Shown here: positions 14,525 through 45,674 of the stretch, in pieces
Layout: every line of letters starts with the position of its first letter
Numbering within the stretch: position 1 is the first letter of the stretch
NCBI GenBank assembly: GCA_963575745.1
Contig: CAUYUJ010000227.1
Coordinates: 1-64,000, forward strand
Length of the DNA stretch: 64,000 nt
Direction of reading: 5' to 3'
Source: Prorocentrum cordatum
Lineage: Eukaryota
The notes under the pieces: generated by a model
What the model saw: only the letters and a program-made list of their open reading frames with translations
What the model was told of the DNA's origin: nothing
Databases searched by the model: none
Translations under genes and position numbers: made by a program

Positions 14525-14852
<328 letters not shown>

Positions 14853-14952
14853 NNNNNNNNNNNNNNNNNNNNNNNNNNNNNNNNNNNNNNNNNNNNNNNN
14901 NNNNNNNNNNNNNNNNNNNNNNNNNNNNNNNNNNNNNNNNNNNNNNNNNNNN
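14853..14952. other. Assembly gap (100 N)
   Basis: Run of N. Confidence 1.
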
Positions 14953-15794
14953 TGTGGCGGGATCGGCCGTTTCGAGTCATCTTGATATGCGCTGACGGTT
15001 TTCTGAACATAAATCGAGCTCTAGGGCAGCTACAGAGCTGGTAAGCACAGCTAACGCATGCAGAATGATCAGGCGCGTTCGCCTGTTCAATCCAGAGGTC
15101 TGAACTCGGTCTGTCAGCCGAGCTAGGTCTGCAAACCTGTTTGTATTATTCGAGTTAACTTGATACGCGTTATCGGTATTTTCTACTTAACTCGAGCTGT
15201 AGGACAGCTACAGTGCTGGTAAGCACTCCTACTGCACTCAGAATGATCAGACGCGTTCGCCTGTTGAATCCATAGGTCTAAACTCGGTCTGCTAGCCGAG
15301 CTAGGTCCGCAAACCTATTCGTATTATTTGAGTGAACTTGATACGCGTTGTCGGCATTTTCTGCTTAACTCGGGCTGTGGGGCAGCTACAGTGCTGGTAA
15401 GCACACCTACCGCACTCAGAATCATCAGGCGCGTTCGCCTGTTGAATCGAGAGCTCTGAACTCGGTCTGTTGCGCGATCCAGAATCACGAAACTGTTCGT
15501 ATTCTCCCAGTCATCTTGAGAGCTACTCTTGGCGTTCTGCACTTAATTCGGGCTGTAGGGAGGCTGCAGGGCGGGTAATCACAGAAATCGATTCGGAGAC
15601 ATCAGACGCGTCCGTCTGTCGCATTCAGAGGTCTCAACTCGGTCTGATACTCGAGTTTGGCTGAAAAACTATTCGTTCTCTGCATTTTTTTCCGACAGTA
15701 TATGTTGTCAGGAAGCTTTACGAGTCCCCCGGCGGTAACAAAGGTTGACGGTTTACCGCCGGCGCCCAGTAATTCTGGCGCGCCGGAGAGCTAG

Positions 15795-16891
15795 TAACTC
15801 GTAGAGCTTCCCTTAGCTAGTTATAGCTGGAAGCTAAGAGTAATTCCGGCGCGCTGGAGAGCTAGTTGGCAAGAAAAATCTCGACGGACCTTTTGGTGAC
15901 TTTTGGTCGGTTGAAAATTTTGTTCTCGAAATTTGACCATTCGTTAGAGCTCTAGTATTTTTTCCCATGATATTCGATCTTATTCCCGCTCGCCATCTTG
16001 ATCTCAGCTCGATCGGGTAACTTTGAAGGCCAAAAAGCAGGCAGGCGGGAACGGCCGTTTCGAGTCATCTTGATAGGCGCTGTCGGTTTTCTCAAGATAA
16101 CTCGAGCTTCAGGACACCTAGAGAGCTGGTCAGCACAGCTAATGCATTCAGAATGATCAGGCGCGTTCGCCTGTTAAATCCAGAGGTCTGAACTCGGTCT
16201 GCTAGCCGAGCTAGGGTCGTAAACCTATTCGTTTTATTCGAGTCATTGTAGCAGACGCTCTCGGTTTTTCGTACTTAACTCGATCTATAGGGCAGCCACA
16301 GAGCTCATACTAACAGAAATCGATTGAGCATTATCAGGCGCGTTCGTCTGTTGCATCAAAGCTCTGAAATCGGCCTTCTCCCCGAGCAAGGTTCGCGAAC
16401 CCATTCGTATTGTTCGAGTCATCTTGAAAAGTGCTCTTCGTTTTCTGTACACAAATCGTGCTGGGGGAGGGCTATAGCTCTGCTGGTCACAGGAATCGAT
16501 TTCGAGACATCAGGCGCGTCCGTTCGTCGAACCGATCGCTCGAAACTCGGTCTGCTGCTCGAACGAAATCTGCGAAACTGTTGTATTATTCGAGTCATCC
16601 TGAGAGGTACTCTCGGTTTTCTGCACTTAACTCATACTGTATGGGCTGCAGAGCTGGTAATCACAGAAATCGATCCGCAGACATGAGACACGTCCGCCTG
16701 TCGACTCGAGCTCGATTGGAAAACTGTTTGTTTGTTTTGTTAGAGTCATCTTTGGAGGTTCATAATCGCTTGGGCTGAAAAACTGAAAAACTGGTCGTTC
16801 TCTGAAATTCGTTTCCACATTATATATTGTCAGGAAGCTCTACGAGTCCCCCGGCGGTAAGAAAGGTTGACGGTTTACCGCCGGCGCCCAG
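15795..16891 (+). mobile_element. Family A element, complete
   Basis: Both termini present; removal restores host gagctag^ttgg. Confidence 0.85.
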
Positions 16892-16954
16892 TTGGAACAA
16901 AATCTCGACGGACCTTTTGATGACTTTTGGTCGGTTGAAAATTTTGTTTCGAAA

Positions 16955-18074
16955 TAACTCGTAGAGCTTCCCTTAGCAAGTTATTGCTGGAAGCTTAAGA
17001 GTAATTCCGGGGAGCTGGAGAGCTAGTTGGCAAGAAAAATCTCGACGGACCTTTTGGTGACTTTTGGTCGGTTGAAAATTTTGTTCTCAAAATTTGACCA
17101 TTCGTTAGAGCTCTAGTATTTTTTCCCATGATATTCGATCTTATTCCCGCTCGCCATCTTGATCTCAGCTCGATCGGGTAACTTTGAAGGCCAAAAAGCA
17201 GGGGGGCGGGAACGGCCGTTTCGAGTCATCTTGATACGCGCTGTCGGTTTTCTCAAGATAACCCGAGCTTCAGGACAACTACAGAGCTGGTCAGCACAGC
17301 TAATGCATTCAGAATGATCAGGCGCGTTCGCCTGTTGAATCCAGAGGTCTGAACTCGGTCTGCTAGCCGAGCTAGGGTCGCAAACCTATTCGTATTATTC
17401 GAGTCATTGTAGCAGACGCTCTCGGTTTTTCGTACTTAACTCGATCTGTAGGGCAGCCACAGAGCTGATAATCACAGAAATCGATTGAGAATTATCAGGC
17501 GCGTTCGTCTGTTGAATCAAGAGCTCTGAACTCGGCCTGCTCCCCGAGCTAGGTTCGCGAACCTATTGGTATTGTTCGAGTCATCTTGAGAAGTGCTCTC
17601 GGTTTTCTGTACTTGAATCGTTCTGGGGGAGGGCTACAGTGCTGCTGGTCACAGGAATCGATTTCGAGACACCAGGCGCGTCCGTTCGTCGAACCGAGAG
17701 CTCGGAACTCGGTCTGCTGCTCGAACGAGATCCGCGAAACTGTTGTATTATTCGAGTCATCCTAAAAGCTACTCTCGGTTTTCTGCACTTAACTCTGGCT
17801 GTATGGGGGGCTGCAGAGCTGGTAATCACAGGAATCGATCCGCAGACATCAGACGCGTCCGCCTGTCGCATTCAGAGGTCTGAACTCGGTTTCATACTCG
17901 AGCTCGATTGGAAAACTGTTCGTTTGTTTTGTTAGAGTCATCTTGAGAGGTCTATAATCGCTTGGGCTGAAAACTAGTCGTTCTCTGAAATTCTTTTCCA
18001 CATTATATATTGTCAGGAAGCTCTACGAGTCCCCCGGCGGTAAGAAAGGTTGACGGTTTACCGCCGGCGCCCAG
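16955..18074 (+). mobile_element. Family A element, complete
   Basis: Removal restores host cgaaa^tttgac exactly (A^T, no TSD). Confidence 0.85.
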
Positions 18075-19557
18075 TTTGACAATTCGTTAGAGCTGTAGTA
18101 TTTTTTCTCATGATATTCGATCTTATTCCCGCTCGCCATCTTGATCTCAGTTCGATCGGGTAACTTTGAAGGCCAAAAAGCAGGCAGGCGGGAACGGCCG
18201 TTTCGAGTCATCTTGATACGCGTTGTCGGTACTTTCTACTTAACTCGAGCTGTAGGGCAGCTACAGTGCTGGTGAGCACGCCTATCGCACTCAGAATCAT
18301 CAGGCGCGTTCGCCTGTTAAATCCATAGGTCTGAACTCGGTCTGCTAGCCGAGCTAGGCCCGCAAACCTATTCGTATTATTCGAGTCAACTTGATACGTC
18401 TCGTCGGTATTCTCTACTTAACTCGAGCTGTAGGGCAGCTACGGTGCTGGTAAGCACATCTAACGCTCTCAGAATCATCAGGCGCGTTCGCCTGTCGAAT
18501 CCATAGGTCTGAACTCAGTCTGTTAGCCGAGCTAGGTCCGGAAACTTATTCGTATTATCCGAATGAACTTGATACGCGTCGTCAGTATTCTCTACTGAAC
18601 TCGAGCTGTAGGGCAGCTACAGTGCTGGTAAGTACACCTATCTCACTCAGAATTATCACGCGCGTTCGCCTGTTGAATCCAGAGGTCTGAATTCGGCCTG
18701 CTAGCCGAGTTAGGTCCGCAAACCTATTCGTATTATTCGAGTCGTCTTGACAGACGCTCTCGGTTTTCTGTACTTAACTCGAGCTGCAGGACAGCTACAG
18801 GGCTCATTATCACAGAGGTCGATGGGGAATCATCAGTCGCGTTCGTCTACTGAAGCGAGAGCTCTAACGCCCGAGCTAGGTTCGCGAAACTATTCGTATT
18901 GTCCGGATGATCTTGAGAAGTGCTCTCTGTCTTCTGCACTGAACTCGTGTTTGGGGCCGGCTACAGTGCTGCGGGTCACATATATCGATTCGCACACATC
19001 AGGCGCGTTTGGCGGTCGATTCCAGAGCTCGGAACTCAGTCTGCTGCTCGAACTAGGTCCGCAAAACTTTTCTATTATTCGAGTCGATACTGTCGGTTTT
19101 CTGCACTTAACTCGGGCTGTAGGGGGGGCTGCAGGGCTGGGAATCACATGAGTGGATTCGGAGACGTCAGACGCGGCGGCCTGTCGCATTCAGAGGTCTG
19201 AAATCGGTTTGATACTCGAACTGGGTTGCGAAACTGTTTGTTTTTTGTTTGCGTTATCGAGAGGTCTGAAATCGTTTGGGCTGAAAAACTAGTCGTTCTT
19301 GGAGTTTTTTCTCACACTTTACATTTTCAGGAAGCTCTACGAGTCCCCCGGCGGTAAGAAAGGTTGACGGTTTACCGCCGGCGCCCAGTTTCCGAATACG
19401 CGTGGCTCCAGGGTGCGCGAAGCGCTGCGGCAGAGCTTCAGAAGAGCTTCGGCAGTTCTTCCAGGCTCCTAGGCAGATCTTCCTTGCGCGCTTTGCAGGG
19501 CCCCACGCATCGGAAACTGCGCCCCTGCAAGCGTCTCCTGCGAGGTTCCAGCGTTTC

Positions 19558-22218
19558 TACCTCGTAGAGCTCGTCGGCATCGATGAGCTAGAGGAATTCG
19601 GGCGCGGGGTGGAGCTAGTTGGCCCACCCGGCTGGGGCGGACAATGTGACAACTTTTGGGTGGTTTTGCTAATACCTCGTAGAGCTCTTCGGCATCGATG
19701 AGCTAGAGGAATTCCGGCGCGGGGTGGAGCTAGTTGGTCGACCCCACCAGAACGGACAATGTGGCAACTTTTCGGTGGTTTTGCGAATATTTGAAAGATA
19801 TTTGACCATTTATTTTGAGAAAGCAGATTTTTCGCATCTGTAGTGGGTTATGGCGCGTCCGCCAGTAAAATTTTCAGGTCCATAGATGCAGTATTACTAT
19901 CAAAACACTTGGCGGAACCGAGGTTGTATAAAAACAGAAAAACACGATTTTTCGATTTTTTCGTTTCTCGCCTCAGAAGCTTTCTCTATGTGTTCCGACG
20001 ATCGCTGTGCAAGAAAAGAGCTCTACGAGGTTCCCGGCGGTGACCAGGTTGACGGTTTACCGCCGGTTCCAGTATACCTCGTAGAGCTCTTCGGCAGCGA
20101 TGAGCTAGAGGAATTCCGACGCGGAGTAACTCGTAGAGCTTCCCTTAGCTAGTACCTCGTAGAGCTCTTCGCCGTCGATAAGCTAGAGGAATTCCGGCGC
20201 GGGGTGGAGCTAGTTGGCCGACCCGGCCTTAAGAGACAAAGTGATGATTTCGGGTCGGTTTTGCTAAGATTTGAAAGATATTTGACAATTCATTTTGAGA
20301 AACCATATTTTTCTCACGTATAGTGGATTATGACGCGGCTGCCAGTTAAATTATCAAGTCCGTGGCTGCAGTATTACTATCGAAAGACTTGCAGGAACCG
20401 ATTTTTGGGGAAACCGAGAATAACGTGATTTTTCGATTTTTCGGCTCTTGCTTCAGGAGCTATCTTGATGTCTTTCGAGGATCGATGTGCAAGAAAAGAG
20501 CTCTACGAGGTGCCCGGCGGTAACCTGGTTGACGGTTTACCGCCGGTTCCCAGTTATAGCTGGAAGCTAAGAGTAATTCCGGCGCGCTGGAGAGCTAGTT
20601 GGCAAGAAAAATCTCGACGGAACTTTTGATGACTTTTGGTCGGTTGAAAATTTGGTTCTCGAAATTTGACAATTCGTTAGAGCTCTAGTATTTTTTCCCG
20701 TGATATTCGATCTTATTCCCGCTCGCCATCTTGATCTCAGCTCGATCGGGTAACTTTGAAGGCCAAAAAGCACTCTGGCGGGATCGGCCGTTTCCAGTCA
20801 TCTTGATACGCGTTGTCGGTATTTTGTACTTAACTCGATCTGTAGGACAGCTACAGAGCTTGTAAGCACAGCTATCGTACTCAGAATCATCAGGCGCGTT
20901 TGCCTGTTCAATCCATAGGTCTGAACTCGGTCTGCTAGCCGAGCTAGGTCTGCAAACCTATTCGTATTATTCGAGTCAACCTGATACGCGTTGTCGGTAT
21001 GTTCTACTTAACTCGAGCTGTAGGGCAGCTACAGTGCTGGTAAGCACACCTATCGCACACAGAATCATCATGCGCGCTCGCCTGTTGAATCCATAGGTCT
21101 GAACTCGGTCTGCTAGCCGCGCTAGGTTCGCAAACCTATTCGTATTATTCGAGTCAACTTGATATGCGTTGTCGGTATTCTCTACTTATCTCGAGCTGTA
21201 GGCCAGCTACAGTGCTGGTAAGCACACCTATCACACTCAGAATGATCAGGTGCGTTCGCCTGTTGAATCCAGAGCTCTGAACTCGGTCTGCTGCGCGATC
21301 CAGAATCAAACTGTTCGTATTCTTCCAGTCATCTTGAGCTACTGTCGGCGTTCTGCACTCAACTCGGGCTGTAGGGGGGCTGCAGGGCGGTTAATTAATC
21401 ACAGGAATCGATTCGGAGACATCAGACGCGTCCGTCTGTCGCAGTCAGAGGTCCGAACTCTGTCTGATACTCGATGGGCTGAAAAACTATTCGTTCTCTG
21501 CATTTTTTGTCGACATTATATGTTGTCAGGAAGCTCTACGAGTCCCCCGGCGGTAACAAAGGTTGACGGTTTACCGCCGGCGCCCAGTGGAGCTAGTTGG
21601 CCGACCTGGCCTTAAGAGACAAAGTGGTGACTTTGGGTCGGTTTGCTAAGATTTGAAAGATATTCAACAATTCATTTTGAGAAACTAGATTTTTATCACG
21701 TGTAGTGGGTTATGACGCGTCTGCGAGTAAAATTTTCAGGTCCGTAGCTGCAATATTACTATCGAAACACTTGCAGGAACCGAATTGAGATGAAAACTGA
21801 AAAATCGTGATTTTTCGGATTTTTCGGCTCTCTCTTGAGAAGCTTCCTTGACGTGTTTCGAGAAGCGCTGGAACGAAAGAGCTCTACGAGGTGCCCGGCG
21901 GTAATCTGGTTGACGGTTTACCGCCGATTCCCAGTTTCAAAGATATTTGACAATTCATTTTGAGAAAGCAGATTTTTCGCACCTGTAGTGGGTTAAGACG
22001 CGTCTGCCAGTAAAATTTTTGAGGTCCGTAGGTGCAGTATTACAATCAAAACATTTGGGGGAACCGAAGTTGGAAAAAACAGAAAAACGTGATTTTTCGA
22101 TTTTTTCGTTTCTCACTCAAGAAGCTTACTCCCTGTGTTCTGAGAAGTGCGGTGTGAGAAAAGAGCTCTACGAGGATCCCTGCGGTAACCTGGTTGACGG
22201 TTCACCGCCGGTTGCCAG
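19558..22218 (+). mobile_element. Family B element hosting B 19673-20072 and B 20075-21934; the latter hosts A 20127-21587, which hosts B 20153-20553
   Basis: Each removal restores the consensus of the host copy. Confidence 0.8.
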
Positions 22219-22477
22219 TTTCAGGCGGCCTGGCAGAGGTCTCCGTGCGATGTTCTGCGCTTGGCTTCGCTATCCGGGTTTTGGACGCTTACAAGTTCCC
22301 GGATAGATCCTTGAGAGCAGAGGTTTCAGATAAGAAGCCGGCGGTGGGTGGTGAGGAGGACACGCCCACGCTCGCCGGTCCACGATCTCTGCAGCGACTC
22401 GCCGGGGCTTGCAGCGTGTTCGGGAGCGTTTCAGGCACGCGTGCAAGTACGCGTGGCTCGAGGGTGCGCGAAGCGCT

Positions 22478-24085
22478 TAACTCGTAGAGCTTCCCTTAGC
22501 TAGTTATTGCTGGAAACTAAGAATAATTCCGGCGCGCTGGAGAGCTAGTTGGCTCGAAAAAAAAACTGAAGTTTTCACAACTTTTGGTCGGTTGAAAATT
22601 TTGTTCTCGAAAATCAACAATTCGTTTGGGCTCTAGTATTTTTTCCCGTGATATTCGATCTTATTCCTGCTCGCCATCTTGATCTCAGCTCGATCGGGTA
22701 ACTTTGAAGGCCAAAAAGCACACTGGCGGGATCGACCGTTTCGAATCATCTTGATACGCGTTGTCGGTATTTTGTACTTAACTCGAGCTGTAGGGCAGCT
22801 ACAGAGCTGGTAAGCACAGCTATCGCACTCAGAATAATCAGGCGTCTTCGCTTGTCGAATCCATAGGTCTGAACTCGGTCTGCTAGCCGAGCTAGGTCCG
22901 CAAACCTATTCGTATTATTCGAGTCATCTTGATACGCGTTGTCGGACTTTCTTTTCGAGTACGGCAGCTACAGTGCTGGTAAGCACAGCTATCGCACTCA
23001 GAATCTTCAGGCGCGTTCGTCTGTTGACTCCATAGGTCTGAACTCGGTCTGCTAGTCGAGCTAGGTCCGCAAAACTATTCGTATTATTCGAGTCAACTTG
23101 ATACGCGTTGTCGGTATTTTGTAATTAATTCGAGCTGTAGGGCAGCTACAGTGCTGGTAAGCACACCTATCGCACTCAGAATTATCAGGCGCGTTCGCCT
23201 GTTGAATCCATAGATCTTAACTCGGTCTGCTAGCCGAGCTAGGTCCGCAAACCTATTCGTATTTTCCGAGTCAACTCGATACGCGTTGTCCGTATTTTGT
23301 ACTTAATTCGAGCTGCAGGGCAGCTACAGCGCTGATAAGCACGCCTATCGCACTCAGAATCATCAGGCGCGTTCGCCTGTCGAATCCATAGTCTGAACTC
23401 GGTCTGCTAGTCGAGCTAGGTCCGCAAACCTATTCGTATTATTGGAGTCATCTTGAGAAACACTCTCGGTATTGTACTTAACTCGAGCTGTAGGCAGCTA
23501 CAGAGCCTACAGTCACAGAAATCGATTGAAAATTATCGGGCGCGTTAGTCTGTTGTATCGAGAGCTCTGAACTCGGCCTGCTGCCCAAGCTAGGTTCGGG
23601 AAACTATTCGTATTGTCCGAATCATCGTGAAAAGTGCTCTCAATTTTCTGCACCTAACTCGTGCCGGGGGAGAGCTACAGAGCGGGTCATAGAAATCGAT
23701 TTGCACACATTGGGTGCGTTCGTTGGTCGATTCGAGAGCTCAGAACTTGGTGTGCTGCTCGAAACAGGTCTGTGAAACTATTATATTATTCGAGTCACTC
23801 TGAGAGATGCTGTCGGTTTTCTGCACTTAACTCGGGCTGTAGGGGGGCTGTAGGGCTGGTAATCACATGGGTCGATTCGCAGACATCAGACGCGTCCGCC
23901 TGTCGCATTGAGAGGTCTGAACTCGGTCTGATCAGACGCGTCCGCTTGTCGCATTCAGAGGTAAAAAAATATTCACTATGAGTCAGAACGTTGGTAGGTG
24001 TTCTCGGTTTTCTCAACGTCGAGCTTGGAAGCTCTACGAGTTCCCCGGGGGTAACCAAGGTTGACGGTTTACCGCCGGCGCCCAG
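22478..24085 (+). mobile_element. Family A element with expanded ~170-180-bp internal repeats
   Basis: Both termini present; host aagcgct^tcggcag. Confidence 0.8.
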
Positions 24086-24365
24086 TCGGCAGAGCTTCGG
24101 AAGAGCTTCGGCAGTTCTTCCAGGCTCCCAGGCAGATCTTCCTTGCGCGCTTTGCAGGGCCCCACGCATCGTAAACGGCGCCCTTGCAAGTGTCTCCTGC
24201 GAGGTTTCCAGCGTCCCGCGCATCGTTTCAGGCGGCCTGGCAGAGGTCCCCGTGCGGCATTCCGCGCTTGGCTTCGCTATCCGGGTTTTGGACGCTTACA
24301 AGTGGACGCTTAGAAGTGGACGCTACCAATGCGTCCAGCCCGCCGAGGCGGACAATGTGACAACT

Positions 24366-36224: not shown

Positions 36225-37428
36225 TAACTCGTAGAGCTTCCCTTAGCAAGTTATTGCTGGAAGCTTAAGAGTAATTCCGGGGCGCCGGAGAGCTAGTTGG
36301 CAAGAAAAATCTCGACGGACCTTTTGCTCACTTTTGGTCGGTTGAAAATTTTGTTTTCGAAATTCAACAATTCGTTAGAGCTCTAGTATTGTTTCCCGTG
36401 ATATTCGATCTTATTCCCGCTCGCCGTCTTGATCTCAGCTCGATCGGGTAACTTTTACTGCCAAAAAGCAGGCAGGCGGGATCGGCCGTTTCGAGTCATC
36501 TTGTCGCGCGGTGACGGTTTTATTAAGATAACTCGAGCTTCAGTACAGCTACAGAGCTGGTAAGCACAGCTAATCGATTCAGAATTTTCAGGCGCGTTCG
36601 CCTGTTGAGCCGAGAGGTCTGAACTCGGTCTGCTAGCCGAGCTAGGTCCGCAAACCTATTCGTATTATTCGAGTCATCTTGACAAGCGTTCTCGGTTTTC
36701 TCCACTTAACTCGAGCTAAAGGACAGCTACAGACCTGATGCGTACGGAATATGATTCATAATCACCATTGGCTGTTCTCTGTTGAATCCAGAGCTCTGAA
36801 CTCGGTCTGCTGCCCGATCTAGAATCGCGAAACTATTCGTATTGTTCAAGTCATCTTGAGAGGTGCTGTCGGTTCTCTGCACTTAACTCGGTCTGTAGGG
36901 GGGCTGCATGGCTGGTCATCACTGGAATCGATTCGGAGACATCAGGCGCGTCCGCCTTCCGAATCCAGAGTTCCAAACTAGATTCGCGAAACTATTCGTT
37001 TTGATTGAGTCATCGTGAGGGATGCTCTTGGTTTCCTGCGCTCAACTCGGGCTGTAGGGGGGGCTGCAGGGCTGGTAATCACAGGAATCGATTTGGAGAC
37101 ATCAGACGCGTCCGCCTGTCGCATGCAGAGGTCTGAACTCGGTCTGATACTTGAGTTGGGTTTGCCAAACTATTCGTATTGTTCGAGTCATCTTGAGAGG
37201 TGCTGTCGATTTACGCACGTAACTCGGGCTGTAGCAGCTACAGAGCTCGTAGAGAAGACAATCTAGAAGCATCGGGGGCGTTCGGCTGTTGCATCCGAGA
37301 GGTCTGAAATCGCTTGGGCTGAACAAAAATATTTTTTCGGTGTAATTTTTTTCGACATTATACGTTGTCAGGAAGCTCTACGAGTCCCCGGCGGTAACAA
37401 AGGTTGACCGAGAACCGCCGGCGCCCAG
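36225..37428 (+). mobile_element. Family A element
   Basis: Both termini present; host gagctgg^ttgg. Confidence 0.8.
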
Positions 37429-37825
37429 TTGGCCGACCCGGCCCGGGCGGACAATGTGACGACTTTGGGTCCGTTTTTTCCGGAGAGCTTGTTGAGAGCT
37501 GAAGGGTTTAAGATTAGAAGCCGGACGGTGGTGGTGCCCGCCAGGAACTCCTTTCCGTCGCTGCACAGTCCGCGCAGCGACTCCGGCGACCCGGCAACTG
37601 GTCCCGGAGAGCTTGGAGAGCTCCGGCGACCCGGCAGCTGGCACGCGTGCAGGCACGCATGGAAGGGTTTCTGCCAGCGCTTCGGCAGTGCTGCTGGGGA
37701 GCTCCCCAGAGCTCTTCAGGAAAGATTTCCCATTCCCAAAGGGTCTCTTCGCTCTCCAGGTTTTTACCTCGTAGAGCTCTTCGGCATCGATGAGCTAGAG
37801 GAATTCCGGCGCGGGGTGGAGCTAG

Positions 37826-38205
37826 TACCTCGTAGAGCTCTTCGGCATCGATGAGCTAGAGGAATTCGGGCGCGGGCTGGAGCTAGTTGGCCGACCCGGC
37901 TCCGACGGACAATGTGCGAACTTTGGGTCGGTTGGACGAACTTTGTGAGATTTGAACATCCGTTTTGAGATTTGGTATTTTTCGCACCTGTAGTGGGTTT
38001 TTTCGCGTCTGCCAATGAATTCTCAGGTCCGTAGCTGCAGTGTACTTATGAAAACACTTGGCGGAACTGTCGTTCGGTGACAACTAAAATCTCACTTTTC
38101 GAGTTTTGAGCTCGTGTATCAGGAAAAAAAGCAGCGCCGTGCGAGAAAAGAGCTCTACGAGGCTCGCGGCAGTAACCTGGTTGACGGTTTACCGCCGGCT
38201 CCCAG
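37826..38205 (+). mobile_element. Family B element (~380 bp) inside another B
   Basis: Both termini present; host gagctag^ttgg. Confidence 0.75.
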
Positions 38206-38387
38206 TTGGTCGACCCGGCCAGAAAGGACAAAGTGGTAACTTTTGGGTGGTTTTGCAATTTTTTCAAAGAAATTTGACAATTCATTTTAAGAAAACAGAA
38301 TTTTACTCCGAGCATTCGTATCTTAACTTGATTCAGAGCTTTTCGGCATCGATGAGCTAGAGGAATTCCGGCGCGGGGTGGAGCTAG

Positions 38388-39601
38388 TAACTCGTAGAGC
38401 TTCCCTTAGCAAGTTGTTGCTGGAAGCTTAAGAGTAATTCCGGGGCGCTGGAGAGTTAGTTGGCAAGAAAAATCTGGACGTACATTTTGGTGACTTTTGG
38501 TCGGTTGAAAATTTTGTTTTCGAAATTCAACAATTCGTTAGAGCTCTAGTATTTTTTCCCGTGGTATTCGATCTTATTCCCGCTCGCCATCTTGATCTCA
38601 GCTCGATCGGGTAATTTTTACTGCCAAAAAGGATTGTGGCCGGATCGACCGTTTCGGGTCATCTTGTCACGCGCTGTCGGTTTTTTCAAGATAACTCGAG
38701 CTTTAGGACAGCTACAGAGCTGGTTAGCACAGCTAATCGATTCAGAATGATCAGGCGCGTTCGACCGTTGAATCCAGAGGTGTGAAGTCGGTCTGCTAGC
38801 CGAGCTAGTTCCGTAAACCTATTCGTATTATTCGAGTCATCTTGACAGAGGCTCTCGATTTTCTGTACTTAACTCGAGCTAAAGGACAGCTACAGAGCTG
38901 ATGCGTACAGAATCTGATTCAGAACCATCAGTGGCCGTTATCTGATGAATCCAGAGCTCTTAACTCGGTCTGCTGCCCGATCTAGAATCGCGAAACTATT
39001 CGTGTTGTTCGAGTCATCTTTAGAGATGCTGTCGGTTCTCTGCACTGAACTCGGGCTCCGGGGCGCTCCATGGCTGGCAATCACTGGAATCGATTCGGAG
39101 ACATCAGGTGCGTCCGCCTTTCGAATCCAGAGCCCCGAACTCTGTCTGCTGCCCGAACTAGGTCCGCGAAACTATTCGTATTGTTCGAGTGATCCTGAGA
39201 GGTGCTGTCGGTTTCCTGCACTTAACTTGGGCTGTAGGGGGCTGCAGGGCTGGTCATCGCAGGAATCGATTCAGAGACATCAGACGCGTCCGCCTGTCGC
39301 ATGCAGAGGTCTGAACTCGGTCTGGTACTCGAGCTAGGTTCGCCAAACTATTCGTATTGTTCGAGTCATCTTGAGAGGTGCTGTCGATTTACGCACGTAA
39401 CTCGGGCTGTAGGATAGCTACAGTACAGAAGACAATCCAGAAGCATCGGGGGCAATCGGCTGTGACATCGGAGAGGTCTGAAATTGCTTGGGCAGAAAAA
39501 AATTTTTTTGTGTGAATTTTTTTTCGACATTATATGTTGTCAGGAAGCTCTACGAGTCCCCCGGCGGTAACGAAGGTTGACGGTTTACCGCCGGGGCCCA
39601 G
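38388..39601 (+). mobile_element. Family A element
   Basis: Both termini present; host gagctag^ttgg. Confidence 0.8.
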
Positions 39602-42114
39602 TTGGCCGACCCAGCCAGAAAGGACAACGTGACAACTTTTGGTGGTTTTGCGATTTTTTGAAAGATACTTGACCATTTATTTTGAGACAGCAGTTTTTTC
39701 GCACCTGTAGACGACTATGAGGGCCTCTACGTCTTGATATGAGCTCTCTAGATGCATTTTTACTATCAAAACACTTGGCGAAACCAACTTCATGTCGACA
39801 TGAAAAAAAACATGTTTTCTCTTTTTCGAGAAACGCTTCCAGAAGCCCTCTCTTCTGATGTTTACCGCGAGCGCCCAGTTTGAAGCTGGACGGTGGCGGT
39901 GCCCCCAGCAGCTCATTTCCGCCGGTCCAGGATCCTCGCAGCAAGCTGTAAAACAAACTGGGAACTTGCGGTAAACCGTCATTTTGGTTACCGCCAGGAA
40001 CTTCATAGAGCTCTCTCCTTGCATGGCGACCAGTGGAACACATGGAGAAAGCTTCTGGAGCAAGAAACAAAAAAATAGAAAAATCACGTTTGTCTGTTTT
40101 TATCCGTCGTCGGTTGCTGCAAGTGTTTTCATAATAATACTGCACTTACGCACCTGAGAATTTCACTGGCAGATACGGCATGACCCACTACAGATACAAA
40201 ACTCTGGTTTCGCAAAATGAATGGTCGAATATCTTTCAAATCTTAGCAAAACCGACCCAACATTTTCAAATACCTCGTAGAGCTTTTCGCCAAGATGAGC
40301 TAAGAGGAATTCGGGCGCAGGTGGGGCTAGTTGGCCGACCCGACTTTTCGAGACAATGTGACGACTTGGGGTCGGTTTTTCCATCTTTCTGCAAAATTTG
40401 AAATTTGTTTTGAGAACCGGTTTTTTTCCCATCTATGGCGGATTGTGCCGCGTCCGCCAGTCAAATTCTCAGGTCCGTAGCTGCAGTGTTACTATTCAAA
40501 GACTTGCTGGAACCGTCGGCCATTCCCAGTCATCCCGACATGCGTTGACGGTTTTCTGTATTTAACTCGAGATTCAGGATAGCTACAGAGCAGATGTTCA
40601 CAGGAACCGGTTTAGAATCATGAGAAGCGTTCGTCTCTTCCCTCGAGAGGTCCCAACTCGATCTGTTAATCGAGTTAGAGCCGCGAAACTATTCGTATTG
40701 TACAAGTGATCTTGACAGGTGCTGTCGGTATCCCTTAACTGAAGATTTAGAATAGCTAGAGAGATGGTACGCTCATGAAACAATCCAGTATCACCGGGCA
40801 CGTTCTTTTCTCGCATCGAGAGGTCTGAAGTCGGTCTGGCACCAAAGCTAGGTCCACGAAAGGAAGATACAAAATTAACTTGGTAGCGTCCAAAACCCGG
40901 AGAGCGAAGAAACCTTTCGGGGACGGGAAATCTTTCCTGGAGAGCTCTGGGAAGCTCCCCTGCAGCGCTGCCGCAGCGCTGGCAGAAGCGCACCCATGCG
41001 TGCCTGCACGCGTGCAGGCACGCGTGGAAGCTTGCCGGAAGCTCTCCCGGACCCGTTGCCGGGCCGAAAAAGCCGGAGCGACGGAAAGTAGCTCCTGGCG
41101 GGCACCACCACCGGATCCGGCTTCTAATCTTAAGCCCTTCAGCTCTCAGCGAGCTCTCCGGGGAAAAAAAGTATGTTTCGAGCTTTTTTTTCTTGGCGAT
41201 TGAGCTTTTTTCGTGTGCTCCGAGCAGCGCCGCGCAAGAACAGAGCTCTACAAGCCTCCCGGCGATTACCTGCTTGACGGTTTACCACGGGATGCCAGTT
41301 GTCCGCCCGGACCGGAACGGCCAACTAGATCCACCCCGCGCCAGAATTCCTCAACCTGTAGGACATCGCAGCGGGTCCGGGAGAGCTTTTGGCAAGCGTC
41401 GGCGCGTGCCTGCGCGCGTGCAGACACGCGTGGACGCGTTCCTGGCAGAGCTTCAGAAGGGCTACAGGGTGGCCCCAGAGCCCCAGAAGTGCTTCACGAG
41501 AGCGTCCGAGCGCTCGCCAGGAAAGCTTTGCGGTGTATATGTCTGTTCTCTTTGCTCTCCCGATTTTTCCCTGAGAGCTCTCTGAAAGCGAATGGGTTTT
41601 AGATGTGCAGCCAAACGGCGGTGGTACTCGGCAGGAGCTCGTCCTCGGCGGCCCACGTCCGCCGCAGCGCCTCGCCCGAGCCGGCAGCTGGTTTGGGGGC
41701 GCGTTCCACGTGGAAGCATTCCTGGCAGCGCTTCAGAAGCGCTGCAGGGGGGCCCCCCAGAGCTCTCTAGGAAATATTTCCCATTACCGAGGGTCTCTTA
41801 CCTCGTGGAGCTCTTCGTTATCGATGAGCTAGAGGAATTCCGGCGCGGGGTGGAGCTAGTTGACCCACTCGAGCAGAAAGGACAAAGTGATAATTTTTGG
41901 TCGGTTTTTCCCGGGGAGCTCTCTGAGAGCTAGAGGGATTTCGATTAGAAGCTGGACGGTGGTGGTGCCCGCCAGCAGCCCATCTCCGCCGGTCCACGAT
42001 CCCGCAGCGCCTCGCCCGGCCCGGCAGCGTGTCTGGGAGAGCTTCCGGCAAGCGTCTACGCGTGCCTGCACGCGTGCAGGCGCGCGTACTAGCGTTCCTG
42101 GCAGCGCTTCAGAA

Positions 42115-44445
42115 AAGATTGTTTAGACAAATCAGCATAACAGAGCTCTTGTGATTTCGAGGAGAGGTCTGTTGATGTACAACATAGAGTGGTATACACG
42201 TCGGGCTGCGTTGGCTGAAACCCTTCGCATACACGGCAACCGCGCACAAGCATCGTCGGGCAGAAGGCTCAGGGCAGGTGGAGACTCGATTGGACAGCGG
42301 AGCTGGCAACATCCTTACATCATAGCATTCTGTCCCCTGTGGTGGGAGGCGGTCTCGGGATCTTATCGTGCATTCTTGGAGGGGTGGCAAACCTTTCTGT
42401 GTTCATAACTCGTAGAGCTTCCCTTAGCTAGTTGCTGGAAGCTTAAGAGTAATTCCGGCGCGCTGGAGAGCTAGTTGGCAAGAAAAATCTCGACGGACCC
42501 TTTGCTGACTTTTGGTCGGTTAAAAATTTTGTTCTCGAAATTGAACAATTCGTTTGAGCTGTAGTATTTTTTCTGACCATATTCGATCTTATTCCCGCTC
42601 GCCATCTTAATCTCCGCTCGATCGGGTATATATTTCTGCAAAAAACATCGCGGCGGGATCGGCTGTTTCGAGTCATCTTGATACGCCTTGTCGGTATTTT
42701 GTACTAAACTCGAGCTGTAGGGCAGCTACAGAGCTGATTATTACAGAAATCGATTGCAAATCATCAGGCGCGTTCGTCTCTTCCATCTAGAGGTCTCAAC
42801 TCGGTCTGCTGCCCGAGCTAGGTTCGTGAAGCTGTTCGTGTTGTTGGAGTCATCTTGAGAGGTGCTGACAGTTTTCTGAGCTTAACTCTGGCTGTAGGGG
42901 GGCTACAGGGCTCGTGCTCACAGGATTCGATTCAGAGACATCAGGCGCGTCTGTCTGCCGCATCCAGAGCTCGGAACTCGGTGTGCTGCCCGAGCTAGGT
43001 CGCAAAACTGTTCGTATTCGTCGAGTCATCTTGAGAGGTGCTGTCCGTTTTCTGCACTTAACTCGAGCTGTAAGGGGGCTGCAGGGCTGGTAATCACTGG
43101 AATCGATTCGGAGATATCAGTCGCGTCCACCTGTCGCATTCAGAGCCCTGAACTCGGCCTGCTGCCCGAGCTAGGTCCGACTATTCGTATTGTTCGAGTC
43201 ATCTTCAGAGGTGCTGTCGATTTTCTGCACTTAACTCGGGGTGTAAGGGGGCTGTAGGGCTGGTAATCACAGCAATCGATTCGAAGACATCAGGCGCGCC
43301 CGCCTGTTGTATTCAGATGTCTGAACTCGGTCTGATACTCGAGCCAGATTTGCGAAACTATTTGTATTGTTCGAGTGATTTTGAGAGGTGCTGTCGACTT
43401 TTGCACGTAACTCGGGCTGTAGGATAGCTACGGAGCTCGGGCGCACAGAAAACGATCCAGAAGCATGAGGGGCGTTTGGCTGTTGCATCGAGAGGTCTGA
43501 AATTGTTTCGGATAAAAAACTATGCGTTCTCTGCAATTTTTCTCGACATTATATATGCTCAGGAAGCTCTACGAGTCCCCCGGCGGTAAGGAAGGTTGAC
43601 GGTTTACCGCCGGCGCCCAGTATAATAAAACATAGATATTTTATTACTTTGTGCAGAGCTGGAAGGGGATGCCGAGCCATTTCGCACCGCGAGTAGAGAT
43701 AGCAGACGTTGAGAGACCCGACACCAAAGGAGCAGGAAGAACTTGCCATGCGTTTGGCACGAATTGCCGAAAGACAAACCGTGAGGGACTTGGTCAGCCC
43801 TGGGATCGAAATTGAACTAAAGGGGGACAGCTTATTAATAAACTCATGGCTCAATGGGCGTTGGCGTTGTGACAACAAACTGTACTTGCAGTGAGTGGGG
43901 GGATGTATTGACTCAATGGAACAAGCCGTTGGGGGCTGGGGAGCACGTAGTTCTGGCCTGGGGATGGATATCTACATACATGACTAAAGGGTAGGTAGCA
44001 CGCGCGCGGACCAGCTAACCCACTTGGCCCGTGAGGGCCGCACATTCTATAACACGTTCAAGTTTCAATATGGTTTCGAGGACTTCCTTCAACCGATCGC
44101 CATCCGTGGGGCCTACGACGGAGGCGTGTGCAGCAAAGGAACGGGATGTGGTTTTTGGCTGCATATAGGCTTCGCCAACCGCCGATATGACCAATATTCT
44201 TATCATCCGTATTCTGTCTCCCCTTTTCCTCCTTCCTCCTCCTTCCATGTGTCATCCTCCACGCCTCTCGTTTGGAGGGGCGTTGCCGTAGCCGCGTGGA
44301 CTCTTGAAGAAGGGGCCGCAATCACTTTTGCCGAACTCTCTGCTGCTGAGGCACTCTCTAGTGCAGCCCGCATTTTTTTTTGCGGCAGCTTCACGCCTCT
44401 AGCTGAACACAGCTGGACCACAGGTGCGAAAACCCACAAAAAACA
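42115..44445 (+). pseudogene. Second, diverged and degenerate copy of the RNase H LINE, split by a Helitron-like element at 42406-43620
   Basis: Peptides RRGLLM...QHPY...WWEAVSGSY...F, KEQEELAMRLA...IELKGDSLLINSWLNGRW, ADQLTHLAREG, RGAYDGGVC and ITFAELS match the 26218 ORF in the same order. It has stops and frameshifts and an A-rich end at ~44438-44445. Confidence 0.8.
42406..43620 (+). mobile_element. Family A element inserted in the LINE pseudogene
   Basis: Both termini present; flanks gttca^tataat (A^T), no TSD. Confidence 0.85.
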
Positions 44446-45674
44446 TGGTTGACGGTTTACCGCACGCTCCAGTTTTGCCAGGATTCGGATGCGAAGGACG
44501 ACATGGTCCACAGCGCACTGGAACGCAGCACAGTTCAACACGGCACGGCGCAGTACAGTTCATCACAGCACGGATCAATCGCAATTTTTGCCAGCTTCGT
44601 GGCCCTGGGGGCGCACATCGCTGATTTTCGAAATGTCTTGGCCGTCGGAGTGCGGCTCCCTCGGGTGAGCCGAAACGTATGCAGTTCGTCCCAGTCTTGG
44701 TTCGGCTTGCCTTGATTTGATCAGGGTCGGCTCTCGTTGTTTCGTTTCTTTTCGTCGTGTTTCGATCCGTTCATTGTCGGTGCGTTTCGCCACGGTTCGG
44801 ATCCTCCCCCTCTTGGTTCGCACCGTTTTTGAATGGAATCGGATTTTTATCTCGAGCTGGTTGATCGTCCCGCTCGTTTCGATCGCTAATAGTTTTGGGC
44901 CAGCTATGCGTTCAGCCAGCTCTTGTGTCAGATCGAGGACAGTTTTGTCAGGATTCGGATGCCAAGGACGACGTGGCCCACAACGCAATATAGAGCACAA
45001 CAGTTCAGCGCGGCATGACACACCTCAATCCAGCCCAGCACGGCACAGCAGAGCCCCTGGACGGGTACTTCACTGCCGATACCCTCAGCATTGCAGTGTC
45101 CCGTTGTCCGGCCAGGTGTCTTCAACGCGTTCCCACGCTTCTTTCCACACACACACACGCACACTCCTTTCCGGGTCCGTGGGGATTCTGCTGCTTCTTG
45201 GGGCAGACTAGGGGCCCTTTGGGGCCGACTTGAGGGGGCCGTCTTGAGGCCGTCCTGAGGGTCTCTCCGCTCCTCGCGGGGCTCTTTGGCCTCCCCTGGG
45301 GCGCTCCAAGGGCTGCCGCGGGGGTTTAGAGGCCACCGCACAGGGAGAGCGTCGGCACCTCTGCGATACACACCTGCCGTGCCCTTGCTGGGGCCCTGCT
45401 GGGGTGCTTCCCTGCCGTGGCCCCCGTTCGGCCGCCACTCAGGGGCAGCATTCGGGGGAGACAGGCTCAGGGGCCTCAGGTTCGAGGTTCGAGGTTCGAG
45501 GTCTTCGGGGCGATGTGTTGGCTCTCTGGGGTGTCCTTGCTAGCCTCGGGATGCCTTCCAGCGGCCGCGCCTCGCCGAGAGCGATCTGGGTGCCCCAGGA
45601 TCGCTCCGAACGGCCGCGGGAGGCCCGAGTTGCGGCCCGAGAACAGGTCGGAAAGAGCGTGTTCTACCGCTGCT

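Follow-up and report, generated by a model that had tools for sequence, protein, structure and literature searches.

Helitron2 elements, as defined in the available portion of PMC3627910, carry a 3′ ATIR roughly 20–30 nt from the terminus, and the excerpt of PMC11417382 places insertion of HLE2 at T-T sites. The anatomy of HINEs/DINE-1, in which the element includes its terminal Ts, is given in the available part of PMC4067079. According to an excerpt of PMC8788227 (Heringer & Kuhn 2021), the dinoflagellate Symbiodinium microadriaticum has a Helitron2-like RepHel. We analysed a window of 64,000 nt (the whole stretch of DNA), in which about 30 kb, 14953..44472, consists nearly entirely of short transposons of rolling-circle type that encode no protein, one inside another. 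This nest very probably consists of non-autonomous rolling-circle elements of the Helitron2/Helentron group (HLE2), from at least six families, mutually inserted in a dinoflagellate-type genome.

Extent and composition of the nest

Position 14953 is the first base past a 100-N assembly gap, and the true left edge of the nest is not visible; on the right, 44472 is the G of a final ...TCCAG terminus followed by T. GC content is 46–57% in the nest vs 53–66% in the flanks (mostly above 59%), and the element families have 0 bp of matches in the window outside 14953–44472. At ≤1 mismatch the motif CTCGTAGAGCT occurs 51 times in the window vs 1.1 expected (maximum in shuffles, 5; 0/100 shuffles reach 51). 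All but two of these matches (49/51) fall within 15714–43575; the others, at 50061 and 61516, are 1-mismatch matches inside a duplicated coding gene. A dinoflagellate-type nuclear genome is indicated by the genes on either side and by a relic of a spliced leader, and the best named protein matches of the window are to Prorocentrum and Amphidinium.

The families, at least six and related to one another, are A (about 1.1–1.2 kb), B (about 0.4 kb), C (1.0–1.6 kb), D, E and F, repeat X being the body of F. Nesting reaches a depth of up to 4 (B 19558–22218 > B 20075–21934 > A 20127–21587 > B 20153–20553); by identity to the local consensus, inner copies were not shown to be younger than outer ones. 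The internal tandem repeats, which the original prediction names among the Helitron2/Helentron and DINE-1/HINE features, were found as 176–178-bp units in copies of A, C and E and are absent from B. Its statement that the window holds no Rep or helicase ORF also stands: Rep, helicase, transposase and RT domains occur in 0 of the 360 window ORFs (≥85 aa). The features are listed below, with edit counts comparing a filled site that has exactly one extra T (one-T) with the other models.

14953..15769 (+) A copy; 5′ part lost in the 100-N gap, 3′ end CCCAG at 15769; in A-host leader at AAGAG^TAATTC
15770..19388 (+) host A element; pieces 15770–15794, 16892–16954, 18075–19388, interrupted by three A copies; 5′ end hidden by the gap
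15795..16891 (+) A copy P1, 1097 bp; at host-leader GCTAG^TTGG; one-T best, 5 vs 6/6 edits
16955..18074 (+) A copy P2 (reference), 1120 bp; at CGAAA^TTTGAC; one-T 3 vs 4/4 edits
19389..19557 (.) repeat X piece, host of B element P7
19558..22218 (+) outer B element P7; pieces 19558–19672, 20073–20074, 21935–22218; two insertions 2 nt apart; without uninterrupted sister site
19673..20072 (+) B copy P3 (reference), 400 bp
20075..21934 (+) B copy P6; pieces 20075–20126, 21588–21934; host of A copy P5
20127..21587 (+) A copy P5; pieces 20127–20152, 20554–21587; at B-leader GGGG^TGGAGC; one-T 3 vs 4/4 edits
20153..20553 (+) B copy P4, the innermost, 401 bp; at the A 5′ hairpin's apical loop, GCTAG^TTATAGC; one-T needs 0 edits vs 1 for either 0 T or 2 T
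22219..22477 (.) repeat X piece
22478..24085 (+) C copy P8, 1608 bp; A-like 5′ 260 nt, 5 tandem units, own 3′ part (ttGGAAGCTCTACGAGTT); 0 T/1 T tie
24086..24365 (.) repeat X, then D-type host of P9, 5′-truncated, starting at about 24303
24366..25397 (+) C copy P9, 1032 bp; 5′ TGACTCG; 1 T/2 T tie
25398..25692 (+) remaining 3′ part of P9's D-type host; 3′ ATIR AGGAGCTCTACGAGGTT; terminus ...CAAG followed by T
25749..26109 (+) B-type element ending within the 3′ hairpin (first arm only), fused to a 5′-truncated A copy
26110..28219 (+) R1, not Helitron-like; 2096-bp insert 26117–28212 that contains an open frame of 680 codons and a run of 9 A (28204–28212), flanked by the 7-bp direct repeat CAATGAT (26110–16, 28213–19)
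28220..29484 (+) two 5′-truncated A pieces, reference positions about 172–348, then 111–1120; A 3′ end complete
29485–29534, 30445–30590: D-type host of M2, which lies in opposite orientation
29535..30444 (−) A copy M2, 910 bp; degenerate 3′ end CCTCAG; at minus-strand GAAG^TTGG; one-T 5 vs 6/6 edits
30756..32327 (−) second B::A-type chimera; 5′-truncated A 30756–32061 fused to B/D-type 32064–32327 truncated in the 3′ hairpin
32371..33091 (−) B-type element; 5′ end 33090/33091, 3′ end 32371; X-like sequence 32728–33048 inside
33092..33932 (−) array of X units (family F body) of about 200 bp
33973..35693 (−) A copy M1, 1721 bp; in F leader (33933–33972, 35694–35754) at GCTGG^TTGG; one-T 5 vs 6/6 edits
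35755..35841 (−) two further B-type leaders stacked 5′ of M1's host leader; 5′ T at 35819 and 35841
36164..37764 (+) F element, host of A copy P10; B-type leader 36164–36224, X body 37429–37764
36225..37428 (+) A copy P10, 1204 bp, with a disrupted 3′ hairpin; most closely related to M1 and P12; may not be an independent event
37765..38304 (+) B host of P11; pieces 37765–37825, 38206–38304
37826–38205 (+) B copy P11, 380 bp; at GCTAG^TTGG; one-T 3 vs 4/4 edits
38335..39878 (+) B/D host of P12; pieces 38335–38387, 39602–39878; internal deletion in the 3′ end
38388–39601 (+) A copy P12, 1214 bp; at GCTAG^TTGG; one-T 4 vs 5/5 edits
39958..41360 (−) B copy; pieces 39958–40270, 41299 to about 41360; contains E (P14) in opposite orientation
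40271..41298 (+) E copy P14, 1028 bp; ends resemble B, with A-like tandem units plus X-like sequence inside
41361..41798 (.) repeat X
41799..44472 (+) outermost right-edge element; F-type leader 41799–41908, X-like 41909–42114, 42115–42405 of no assigned family, then P13 and R2; the 3′ remnant comprises only a 3′ hairpin's second half and TCCAG followed by T (44445–44472)
42406..43620 (+) A copy P13, 1215 bp; without sister site for comparison
43621..44443 (+) R2, degenerate relative of R1 with stops and a 6-A run at its end (44438–44443); 38% protein identity to R1 residues 418–613 (E = 2e-28)

Element ends, hairpins and target sites

Elements had been described as beginning with T plus a motif and ending with its inverted copy, a 10-bp-stem hairpin and CCAG, and we located 24 such 5′ ends and 25 such 3′ ends in 14953–44472. 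The 5′ ends have the form T + A(A/C)CTCGTAGAGCT, with T preceding A(A/C)CTCG... in 24/24; variants are TG-A/TG-C at 24366 and 36164 and a 1-nt deletion at 33090 (−). The 3′ ends, 22 complete and three degenerate or partly deleted (29535 (−), 39878, 44472), consist of the inverted motif copy, the hairpin and then (C)CAG, with (C/A)AG in 25/25. The next base is T in all 25, in line with the original observation on the resolved cases (regional T content, 25.9%), and the second base past the end is also T in 17/25; T likewise follows a 26th 3′ end, at 39958 (−), whose inverted motif is diverged and which was read by eye.

The 3′ hairpin has a 10-bp stem, CCGGCGGTAA/TTACCGCCGG, that covaries round a near-invariant 14-nt loop, GGTTGACGG. 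Across 32 ends from three sequences, 87.5% of stem cells are paired vs 81.1% in shuffles (0/500 as high), and just 22–49% when the partners are slid out of register. Double-change cells number 18 vs 5.3 (0/500 shuffles), mostly in one family, so that they may represent few events. The 3′ ATIR lies 44–45 nt from the terminus. The 5′ ATIR is paired along its full length with a downstream partner 20–30 nt away, forming a 5′ hairpin with z −5.1 in A (−12.6 kcal/mol; 0/200 shuffles as good) and z −2.2 in C and short A; the B hairpin is weak by energy alone (z −1.6; 16/200 shuffles as good).

One family-specific word is present in three copies, as the 5′ ATIR, its fold-back partner and the 3′ ATIR: 5′ ACTCGTAGAGCTTCC accompanies 3′ GGAAGCTCTACGAGT in the A and C families, and 5′ ACCTCGTAGAGCTCTT accompanies 3′ AAGAGCTCTACGAGGT in B. 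A 3′ ATIR match of 12–17 nt with ≤1 mismatch exists for 30/30 5′ ends, and six distal words are found at both ends (TAGAGCTTCC, TAGAGCTCTT, AAGGGCAGGAG, TAGAGCAG, TAGATCTnGG and TAGATTG). The proposal that the inverted motifs co-vary between families was borne out, with agreement between the 5′ and 3′ words in all six families compared; four of these sit on two unrelated public contigs that carry the same superfamily. This match could reflect base pairing, or one protein reading the same word three times. Likeness among copies of A is 94.2% in the 3′ ATIR and onward to the terminus vs 75.8% immediately upstream (66 pairs), and 95.8% in the first 50 columns vs 89–91% deeper inside; the element termini are under constraint.

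On contigs L001 and L003, which hold relatives, the architecture is the same, as are the leader words (AAGAGTAAT, GCAGCTAGTTGG) and the stacking of 5′ ends; their leaders fold clearly better than shuffles in only 2/6. A scan of 185,579 prokaryotic genomes returned one 20-mer, a chance match, and two contigs that are short, poor in ORFs and probably mis-binned.

We tested 16 insertion events, of which 11 have an uninterrupted sister site within the window. A target-site duplication (TSD) of more than 1 bp is required in 0/11 comparisons, in agreement with the predicted lack of TSDs, which is refined here by one extra T: the one-T model is best in 9/11 and ties in 2/11. Read from the sequence, this T may be either the element's own, as reported for Helentrons/HINEs, or a 1-bp TSD. 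The 5′ flanks end in AG in 7/24 cases (CTAG in 4), and 3′ flanks read T followed by TGG in 8/25. The favoured target, CTAG^TTGG, is used in the A leader and in the B leader (2–4 times); the D target is AAG^TTGG on the opposite strand, and the insert there is correspondingly inverted. Target choice is strand-specific, with insert orientation tracking the strand of the target word. CTAG^T(T)GG is found at about nt 60–74 of the 5′ leader of the elements themselves and resembles their own terminus, CCAG^T; a terminus-like target inside the leader would explain the self-nesting. At position 62 of the B/F leader, the A copies (P10, P12 and M1) are mutual nearest relatives (87–94%) and may come from one composite, in which case the hot spot would represent about 4–5 independent events.

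Mobilisation and rival explanations

The Helitron2/HINE-type anatomy originally claimed was supported, as every published structural feature of non-autonomous HLE2 that we tested was found: (i) a 5′ ATIR within 1–2 nt of the end; (ii) a 5′ hairpin including the ATIR; (iii) a subterminal 3′ ATIR just upstream of the 3′ hairpin; (iv) T at the 5′ end and on both flanks; (v) absence of TSDs; and (vi) central tandem repeats. Judged by anatomy alone, the elements would be assigned to Helitrons. Following the mechanism described for Helitrons, we infer rolling-circle mobilisation in trans by a RepHel, an HUH nuclease combined with a helicase, whose gene would lie elsewhere. This partner would nick one strand beside the 5′ T and peel it off 5′ to 3′; the emerging 3′ ATIR and hairpin would be recognised as the end and the strand cut after ...CCAG, and the single strand would be pasted into a site cut beside a T. 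Siblings would be the best targets, through CTAG^T(T)GG in the leader, and the family would grow as a self-contained nest.

The bacterial HUH insertion sequences IS91 and IS200/IS605 also have subterminal hairpins and insert without TSD by a short word, at targets that mimic their ends; they are prokaryotic and use other enzymes, and are presumably alike the nest elements in working principle. Another single-strand HUH enzyme might move the elements, be it a Y1/Y2 nuclease of IS91-like or IS200/IS605-like type that lacks a fused helicase, or an entirely unknown enzyme, with a convergent likeness to Helitron2, and the absence of RepHel from the 360 ORFs of the window fits such an enzyme. This is unlikely, given that all Helitron2/HINE features tested were found, that the available part of PMC8788227 documents a Helitron2-like RepHel in a dinoflagellate, and that a eukaryotic IS91 or IS200-type transposase was not found in the literature searched.

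If a few composite units had been multiplied by segmental, tandem and inverted duplication, akin to satellite amplification, in place of many separate transpositions, this would account for the close likeness of P10, P12 and M1 with their leaders, for an inverted match (1053 bp at 85%) of leader plus A around 35.96 kb, and for the leader-X-leader-X periodicity; the two B::A chimeras may also share a common ancestor. However, complete elements with intact ends occupy at least 8 different host sites, uninterrupted sister sites are present in the same window, one site is occupied by inserts of different families, and insert orientation is set by the target-word strand. Duplication can add copies but not create such junctions, and we think it very improbable as the main source of the pattern. 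Short, non-coding and abundant elements with inverted terminal words also recall cut-and-paste MITEs of a DDE transposon whose inverted repeats have degenerated. That origin is scarcely credible here: the placing of the inverted words is asymmetric (at the very 5′ end, but 44–45 nt in from the 3′ end), the ends have no further resemblance to each other, a TSD of 2–10 bp appears at 0/11 testable sites, and a DDE domain is absent from the window.

Comparison with known systems

The elements of the nest share with non-autonomous Helitron2 short ATIRs, the 5′ one 0–2 nt from the end with its 3′ counterpart upstream of the 3′ hairpin, a 5′ hairpin including the 5′ ATIR, a first base T, TSD-less insertion and compensatory changes between related families. 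They differ in a 3′ ATIR 44–45 nt from the end (not about 20–30), a larger hairpin (10-bp stem, 14-nt loop), a target of R^T(T), often CTAG^TTGG, rather than TTTT^T/C, unrelated terminal sequences and a dinoflagellate host.

HINEs/DINE-1, the non-autonomous partners of Helentrons, whose proteins include an AP-endonuclease domain, are likewise similar as far as the excerpt of Thomas et al. 2014 (PMC4067079) describes them: subterminal inverted repeats some 13 bp long, a 3′ stem-loop, a second short inverted repeat just within the 5′ one, central tandem repeats of up to half the element, and a TT target, left unmodified, with boundary Ts belonging to the element. Unlike the HINEs of that excerpt, the nest elements have one T, not runs of 2–5, and lack a microsatellite and the DINE-1 core. 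The S. microadriaticum RepHel, in the available part of PMC8788227, matches in dinoflagellate host group and HLE2 branch; that element is autonomous and known from protein, and its likeness to the nest is not based on termini. Flank GC (53–66%) and the best named proteins (Prorocentrum, Amphidinium) suggest that the nest host is of a genus other than Symbiodinium.

Canonical Helitrons (HLE1), in the excerpts of PMC4067079 and PMC11417382, share one-strand TSD-less insertion and a 3′ hairpin near the end, and their usual terminus, CTRR then T, resembles both the nest terminus (CCAG then T) and the favourite target (CTAG then T); unlike the nest elements, they begin with 5′ TC, insert between A and T, and are without ATIRs or a 5′ hairpin. 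The kind of element (HLE2/Helitron2-HINE) is known, and the family is new, set apart from these known systems by their descriptions.

Element ends and the setting of the nest

The 11-nt core CTCGTAGAGCT, allowing one mismatch, occurs 51 times in the window, compared with a mean of 1.1 and a maximum of 5 in shuffled sequences (none of 100 shuffles reached 51). Forty-nine of these matches lie within 15714–43575, and the remaining two, each with one mismatch, fall inside a duplicated coding gene. In context the matches form two classes, the 5′ ends and the 3′ ends of elements. Counting variants (G replacing the first A at 24366 and 36164, and a 1-nt deletion at 33090 on the minus strand), all 24 5′ ends consist of T followed by A[A/C]CTCGTAGAGCT. 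The asymmetric terminal inverted repeat (ATIR) is 15–16 nt long and starts 1–2 nt past the T in every one of them, in keeping with the 8–15 bp and 0–2 nt of Helitron2. The 25 3′ ends, 22 complete and three degenerate or partly deleted, are composed of the inverted word, a spacer of 3–5 nt, the hairpin CCGGCGGTAA(14 nt)TTACCGCCGG and (C)CAG, and in all 22 complete ends the 3′ ATIR is located upstream of the hairpin, 44–45 nt from the terminus. T is the base directly after each of the 25, compared with 25.9% T in the region, and one further end, the 26th, identified by visual inspection at 39958 on the minus strand, behaves in the same way. T thus flanks 24 of 24 5′ ends and 25 of 25 3′ ends, as at T–T insertion sites. 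The original prediction, made from the sequence alone, of elements that begin with T plus a motif, end with its inverted copy, a hairpin and CCAG, and are followed by T is borne out by these ends.

The predicted span of the nest, 14953–44472, holds on the right, where 44472 is a true 3′ terminus; the left limit is merely the edge of a 100-N assembly gap (14853–14952). A (TAC)n microsatellite of 109 units (14525–14952) leads directly into this gap, which leaves the nest unassembled at its left edge. The GC content of the nest is 46–57%, compared with 53–66% in the flanks. Representative copies of the element families described below cover 24,567 of the 29,520 bp of the nest, a generous figure because the representatives of E and C hold sequence resembling a further repeat, X. 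Repeat X covers 3,656 bp, and the union, including the non-Helitron-like insert R1, is 27,860 bp. In the rest of the window, family sequences matched 0 bp.

A Pfam scan covered stop-to-stop ORFs of at least 85 aa: 110 from the nest (three more of its 113 overlap the N gap and were omitted), 102 from the left side and 148 from the right. Rep, helicase, transposase, integrase and reverse transcriptase domains were found in none of these 360 ORFs, in agreement with the prediction that the window holds no Rep/helicase ORF. Matches above the curated cut-offs were confined to the right flank and come from the two copies of one gene:

Gene copies in the right flank
48108–51106, plus strand: multi-exon FAD_binding_2 (fumarate-reductase-like) gene
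59118–62557, plus strand: its tandem duplicate, 96–97% identical, about 11.4 kb apart

One exon of this gene is 91–93% identical to proteins from Prorocentrum cordatum, Amphidinium carterae and a Gonyaulax transcriptome. At 11628–11648 (minus strand), 20 of 21 bases match the 21 fixed bases of the 22-nt dinoflagellate spliced leader (query from PMC6050394; 0 of 100 shuffles), a signature of retroposition, with the gene predicted to its left on the same strand. On the basis of the exon identity and the spliced-leader match, the window is most likely dinoflagellate nuclear DNA. The stretch 7880–9838 has a strong T-over-A skew (AT skew −0.56), long spurious frames on both strands and no Pfam match above cut-off, and is probably low-complexity sequence.

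Families, internal repeats and inserts

The six families are related through shared ends and leaders:

Element families of the nest
A: reference 16955–18074, 1120 bp; words ACTCGTAGAGCTTCC (5′ terminal) and GGAAGCTCTACGAGT (close to the 3′ end)
B: reference 19673–20072, 400 bp; words ACCTCGTAGAGCTCTT (5′) and AAGAGCTCTACGAGGT (3′)
C: first 260 nt 87–97% identical to A, last 135 nt only 57–70%
D: leader B-like, 3′ half its own
E: B-like ends joined to A-like repeats
F: B-type leader passing directly into repeat X

Three aligned F copies retain a mean column identity of 84% across the boundary between leader and X, and X is therefore the body of another family and not foreign host DNA. Families A, C and E carry tandem arrays with a period of 176–178 bp in 2.3–5.1 copies, comparable to the central repeats of HINE/DINE-1 elements, the non-autonomous partners of Helentrons. 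No tandem array is present in the B copies. Each 177-bp unit carries T-AACTCG in the element strand and, in the opposite one, T-GACTCG, echoing the first 7 nt of the element (e.g., 18202–18804), and TGACGGTTT, present in some units, echoes the 3′ loop. Termini and central repeats have only the short words TAACTCG, CGAGTCA and TGACGGTTT in common, with no wider similarity. An origin of the repeats from a head-to-tail junction of termini was rejected: five two-unit stretches aligned to coordinate-joined 3′ and 5′ ends scored 15–18, within the range of shuffled sequences (mean about 16.7, maximum 22–25). Rfam and tRNA scans of the window gave no matches, so the units are not 5S, spliced-leader or tRNA genes known to these tools.

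Two chimeras and two inserts of another kind were also found within the nest:

Chimeras and non-Helitron-like inserts
25749–26109 with 28220–29484: chimera
32327–30756, minus strand: chimera, breakpoint about 25 nt from that of the first
26110–28219: R1, an insert of 2096 bp whose 680-codon frame is intact, with a 9-A tail; the 7-bp direct repeat reads CAATGAT
43621–44443: R2, a degenerate R1 relative (38% amino-acid identity, E = 2e-28)

In each chimera a B/D-type element is broken inside its 3′ hairpin and fused to an A copy from about nt 160–172; the pair could go back to a single ancestor, followed by a deletion, or could have arisen through template switching that recurred at the hairpin. 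R1 looks retroposed because of its A tail and direct repeat. Its frame holds about 15 copies of a 30-nt repeat (26482–26914). The 680-aa product matched no Pfam family; a sequence search returned one unnamed 478-aa homologue (66% identity), and a protein-atlas search gave a sub-threshold RNase H-like lead (score 0.85). An ungapped search with up to three mismatches detected no spliced-leader relic at the R1 5′ end, where inspection by eye shows only a gapped likeness. R1 and R2 each adjoin half of a Helitron-like 3′ hairpin.

Terminal words, relatives and target sites

A single scan of 185,579 prokaryotic genomes (596 Gb) with a 20-mer of the hairpin returned three loci. One was rejected, being a lone 20-mer on a 46-kb Clostridia-labelled contig with no adjoining inverted motif, where about one chance match is expected in 596 Gb. 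The other two, DUZG01000080.1 (1–2900; L001) and DUZG01000102.1 (1–1801; L003), are short contigs of 40–48% GC with at least 11 related 3′ ends and seven related 5′ ends. Both have the T + [A/G/C][A/C]CTCG[T/A]AG start, the loop GGTTGACGG, which is nearly invariant among the 3′ hairpins, stacked 5′ ends and the leader words AAGAGTAAT and GCAGCTAGTTGG. In L001 the ORFs do not exceed 194 aa. The two are filed under a Nitrospinota metagenome-assembled genome (MAG) and are probably eukaryotic DNA mis-binned into it.

Both ends of the elements appear to be under constraint. Among 12 A copies (66 pairs), identity averages 94.2% over the stretch that starts with the 3′ word and closes the element, compared with 75.8% in the preceding 92 alignment columns, and the first 50 columns at the 5′ end are 95.8% identical, compared with 89–91% further in. 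The 5′ word also pairs back with a partner 20–30 nt downstream, forming a 5′ hairpin that includes the ATIR. Because the A and B loops differ in length and the 3′ arms could not be aligned in a joint alignment of 22 leaders, folds were compared singly. The A hairpin (−12.6 kcal/mol, z −5.1) was equalled by none of 200 shuffles, those of C and short A copies have z −2.2, and that of B is weaker still (z −1.6), 16 of 200 shuffles folding equally well.

Every element thus has the same word three times, two of them inverted, and all three sites change together between A and B, in line with the co-varying inverted motifs of the original prediction. Family A has A ahead of CTCG where B has C, and the two partner sites change to match (T and G, respectively); the position following GAGCT behaves likewise. 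The 5′ partner word covaries by family at two positions (A–T/T–A in A, C–G/C–G in B). All 30 5′ ends, including those of L001 and L003, have a 3′ word match of 12–17 nt with at most one mismatch, and six different distal words are common to both ends. In the 10-bp 3′ stem (32 3′ ends), 87.5% of cells are paired, compared with 81.1% after shuffling (0 of 500 as high) and 22–49% with slid partners. Double changes number 18 against 5.3 expected (0 of 500 as high), mostly in one family and so representing few independent events. Bao & Jurka proposed, in the available part of their account, that pairing of the 5′ and 3′ ATIRs sets the end point (PMC3627910). The three-word match would fit such pairing just as well as recognition of all three copies of the word by a protein.

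The nest itself supplies empty sites, namely the intact sister copies of elements that an insertion has split, offering a clean natural test of the T-flanked insertion without target-site duplication (TSD) expected in the Helitron2/Helentron group (HLE2). For 16 complete elements the site was rebuilt with zero, one or two flanking Ts and the closest window sequence was found by edit distance. Two events matched only themselves and three had no sister site (at least 9 edits in about 41 nt), leaving 11 comparable events. Exactly one T gave the best fit in nine of these and tied in two; for the innermost B element, 20153–20553, one T required 0 edits versus 1 and 1 for the other reconstructions. 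A filled site is thus the empty site plus the element plus one T. At none of the 11 sites with a sister copy in the window was a duplication of 2 bp or more needed, which sustains the earlier claim of no TSD. The sequence fits equally well with an extra T that opens the element, the Repbase convention for Helitron2, with one that closes it and with one produced by a 1-bp duplication. Helentrons posed this problem to Thomas et al. too, who judged the Ts to be the element's own (PMC4067079).

The deepest stack is B 19558–22218 > B 20075–21934 > A 20127–21587 > B 20153–20553, and 5′ ends are stacked four deep at 35841–35693 (minus strand). Identity to the local majority consensus is 86.8% for the innermost B and 92.2% for the outer B, and 96–97% for A inserts compared with 93.4% for their host, values in which subfamilies confound a reading of age.

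The base ahead of the 5′ T is G in 10, A in nine, T in four and C in one of the 24 ends; AG closes seven of these flanks, including four with CTAG. Past the 3′ T, a second T follows in 17 of 25 ends, and in eight the 3′ flank reads T|TGG. The word GCTAG^TTGG (the caret marks the insertion point) is located at about nt 60–74 of both the A leader and the B/F leader, where A elements have inserted into A (15795) and into B/F (38388, 36225 and 35693, the last on the minus strand) and a B element into B (37826). The apical loop of the A 5′ hairpin carries GCTAG^TTAT, which is occupied by B (20153), and an accordingly inverted A copy (29535–30444) occupies AAG^TTGG, read on the other strand of a D element. 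The three A copies in B/F leaders are mutual nearest relatives (87–94%), two of them facing each other across an 85% inverted match; they may derive from one event, later copied, and we therefore count about 4–5 independent insertions at GCTAG^TTGG. Inverted leader-plus-A composites at 33900–35752 and 36166–37512 face outward from about 35.96 kb (1053 bp, 85%) and may be an old inverted duplication.

The leader word GCTAG^TTGG resembles the element's own terminus, CCAG^T. From about 20 sites, some of them not independent, we infer that the enzyme may cut targets that resemble its terminator, and the empty sites of the window likewise suggest that target choice copies the terminator site. On this basis the elements would attract one another, since their leaders carry the terminator-like word. 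The idea is that the leader word GCTAGTTGG could be a decoy target of terminator cleavage; the decoy word is kept in the relatives from a second, low-GC source.

Mobilization and comparison with known elements

We read the elements as non-autonomous HLE2 members, putatively moved in trans by a RepHel (HUH nuclease plus helicase) of the Symbiodinium microadriaticum type, because their anatomy fits HLE2 and HINE elements and such a protein has been reported in a dinoflagellate. The available text of PMC8788227 describes the S. microadriaticum protein as Helitron2-like, lacking the AP-endonuclease domain that marks Helentrons in the strict sense, and branching before the Helitron2/Helentron split. 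Transposition would begin with a nick beside the 5′ T and proceed by strand displacement; the end would be recognized through the 3′ word and hairpin, and the strand, cut behind CCAG, would be transferred to a position beside a T within a terminator-like word. Sibling leaders and hairpin loops would then be the transposase's best targets. We tentatively propose, as a less likely extension, that the terminator decoy in the leader produces closed, self-feeding nests that spare host gene arrays, and that the elements are the non-autonomous cloud of a basal, endonuclease-less dinoflagellate RepHel lineage. If so, they would show what ancestral HLE2 ends looked like.

Convergence of Helitron2-like ends in elements moved by a different HUH enzyme is improbable. 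Duplication of composite units, with no transposition, would explain some of the copies and fails to explain the junctions, making it a still weaker candidate as the sole process. Least probable, and very nearly dismissed, is that these are miniature elements of a DDE transposase: such elements have symmetrical terminal repeats and a TSD of fixed length, and both features are contradicted by the asymmetric ends and the absence of a TSD longer than 1 bp.

Non-autonomous HLE2 members are a kind of element that is already known. The families are new by our literature search, with an earlier description in Repbase, Dfam or a supplement possible: the terminal words were not found as text in print, and titles and abstract openings yielded no non-autonomous HLE2 elements in dinoflagellates. 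Within the literature searched, as far as the available text extends, the Helentron/Helitron2 branch is linked to dinoflagellates by PMC8788227 alone, through a single protein. Dinoflagellate genomes are huge and their repeats poorly catalogued. The window yields complete, mutually confirming ends for six related non-autonomous families, together with a conserved 3′ loop word and a preferred target, which can serve as a search key for the autonomous partner, for repeat masking in dinoflagellate assemblies and for mis-binned eukaryotic contigs in bacterial MAGs. What deserves further attention is the self-targeting leader word, along with a possible connection to the basal RepHel lineage of dinoflagellates.

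Compared with canonical Helitrons (HLE1), which have 5′ TC, 3′ CTRR and A–T insertion, the elements have T-A[A/C]CTCG, CCAG and T/T flanks, although the leader word GCTAG^TTGG resembles the canonical CTRR-T terminus. They have all the structural features listed for Helitron2 in the available part of Bao & Jurka (PMC3627910), namely ATIRs, a 5′ hairpin that includes the 5′ ATIR, a 3′ hairpin and a 5′ T; the sole quantitative departure is the 3′ ATIR, about 20–30 nt from the end in Helitron2 and 44–45 nt here. They fit the HELIANO rule for HLE2, as given in the accessible text of PMC11417382, of inverted repeats plus a stem-loop at T–T sites. With HINE/DINE-1 elements, as described in the available portion of Thomas et al. 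[quoted passage not shown]
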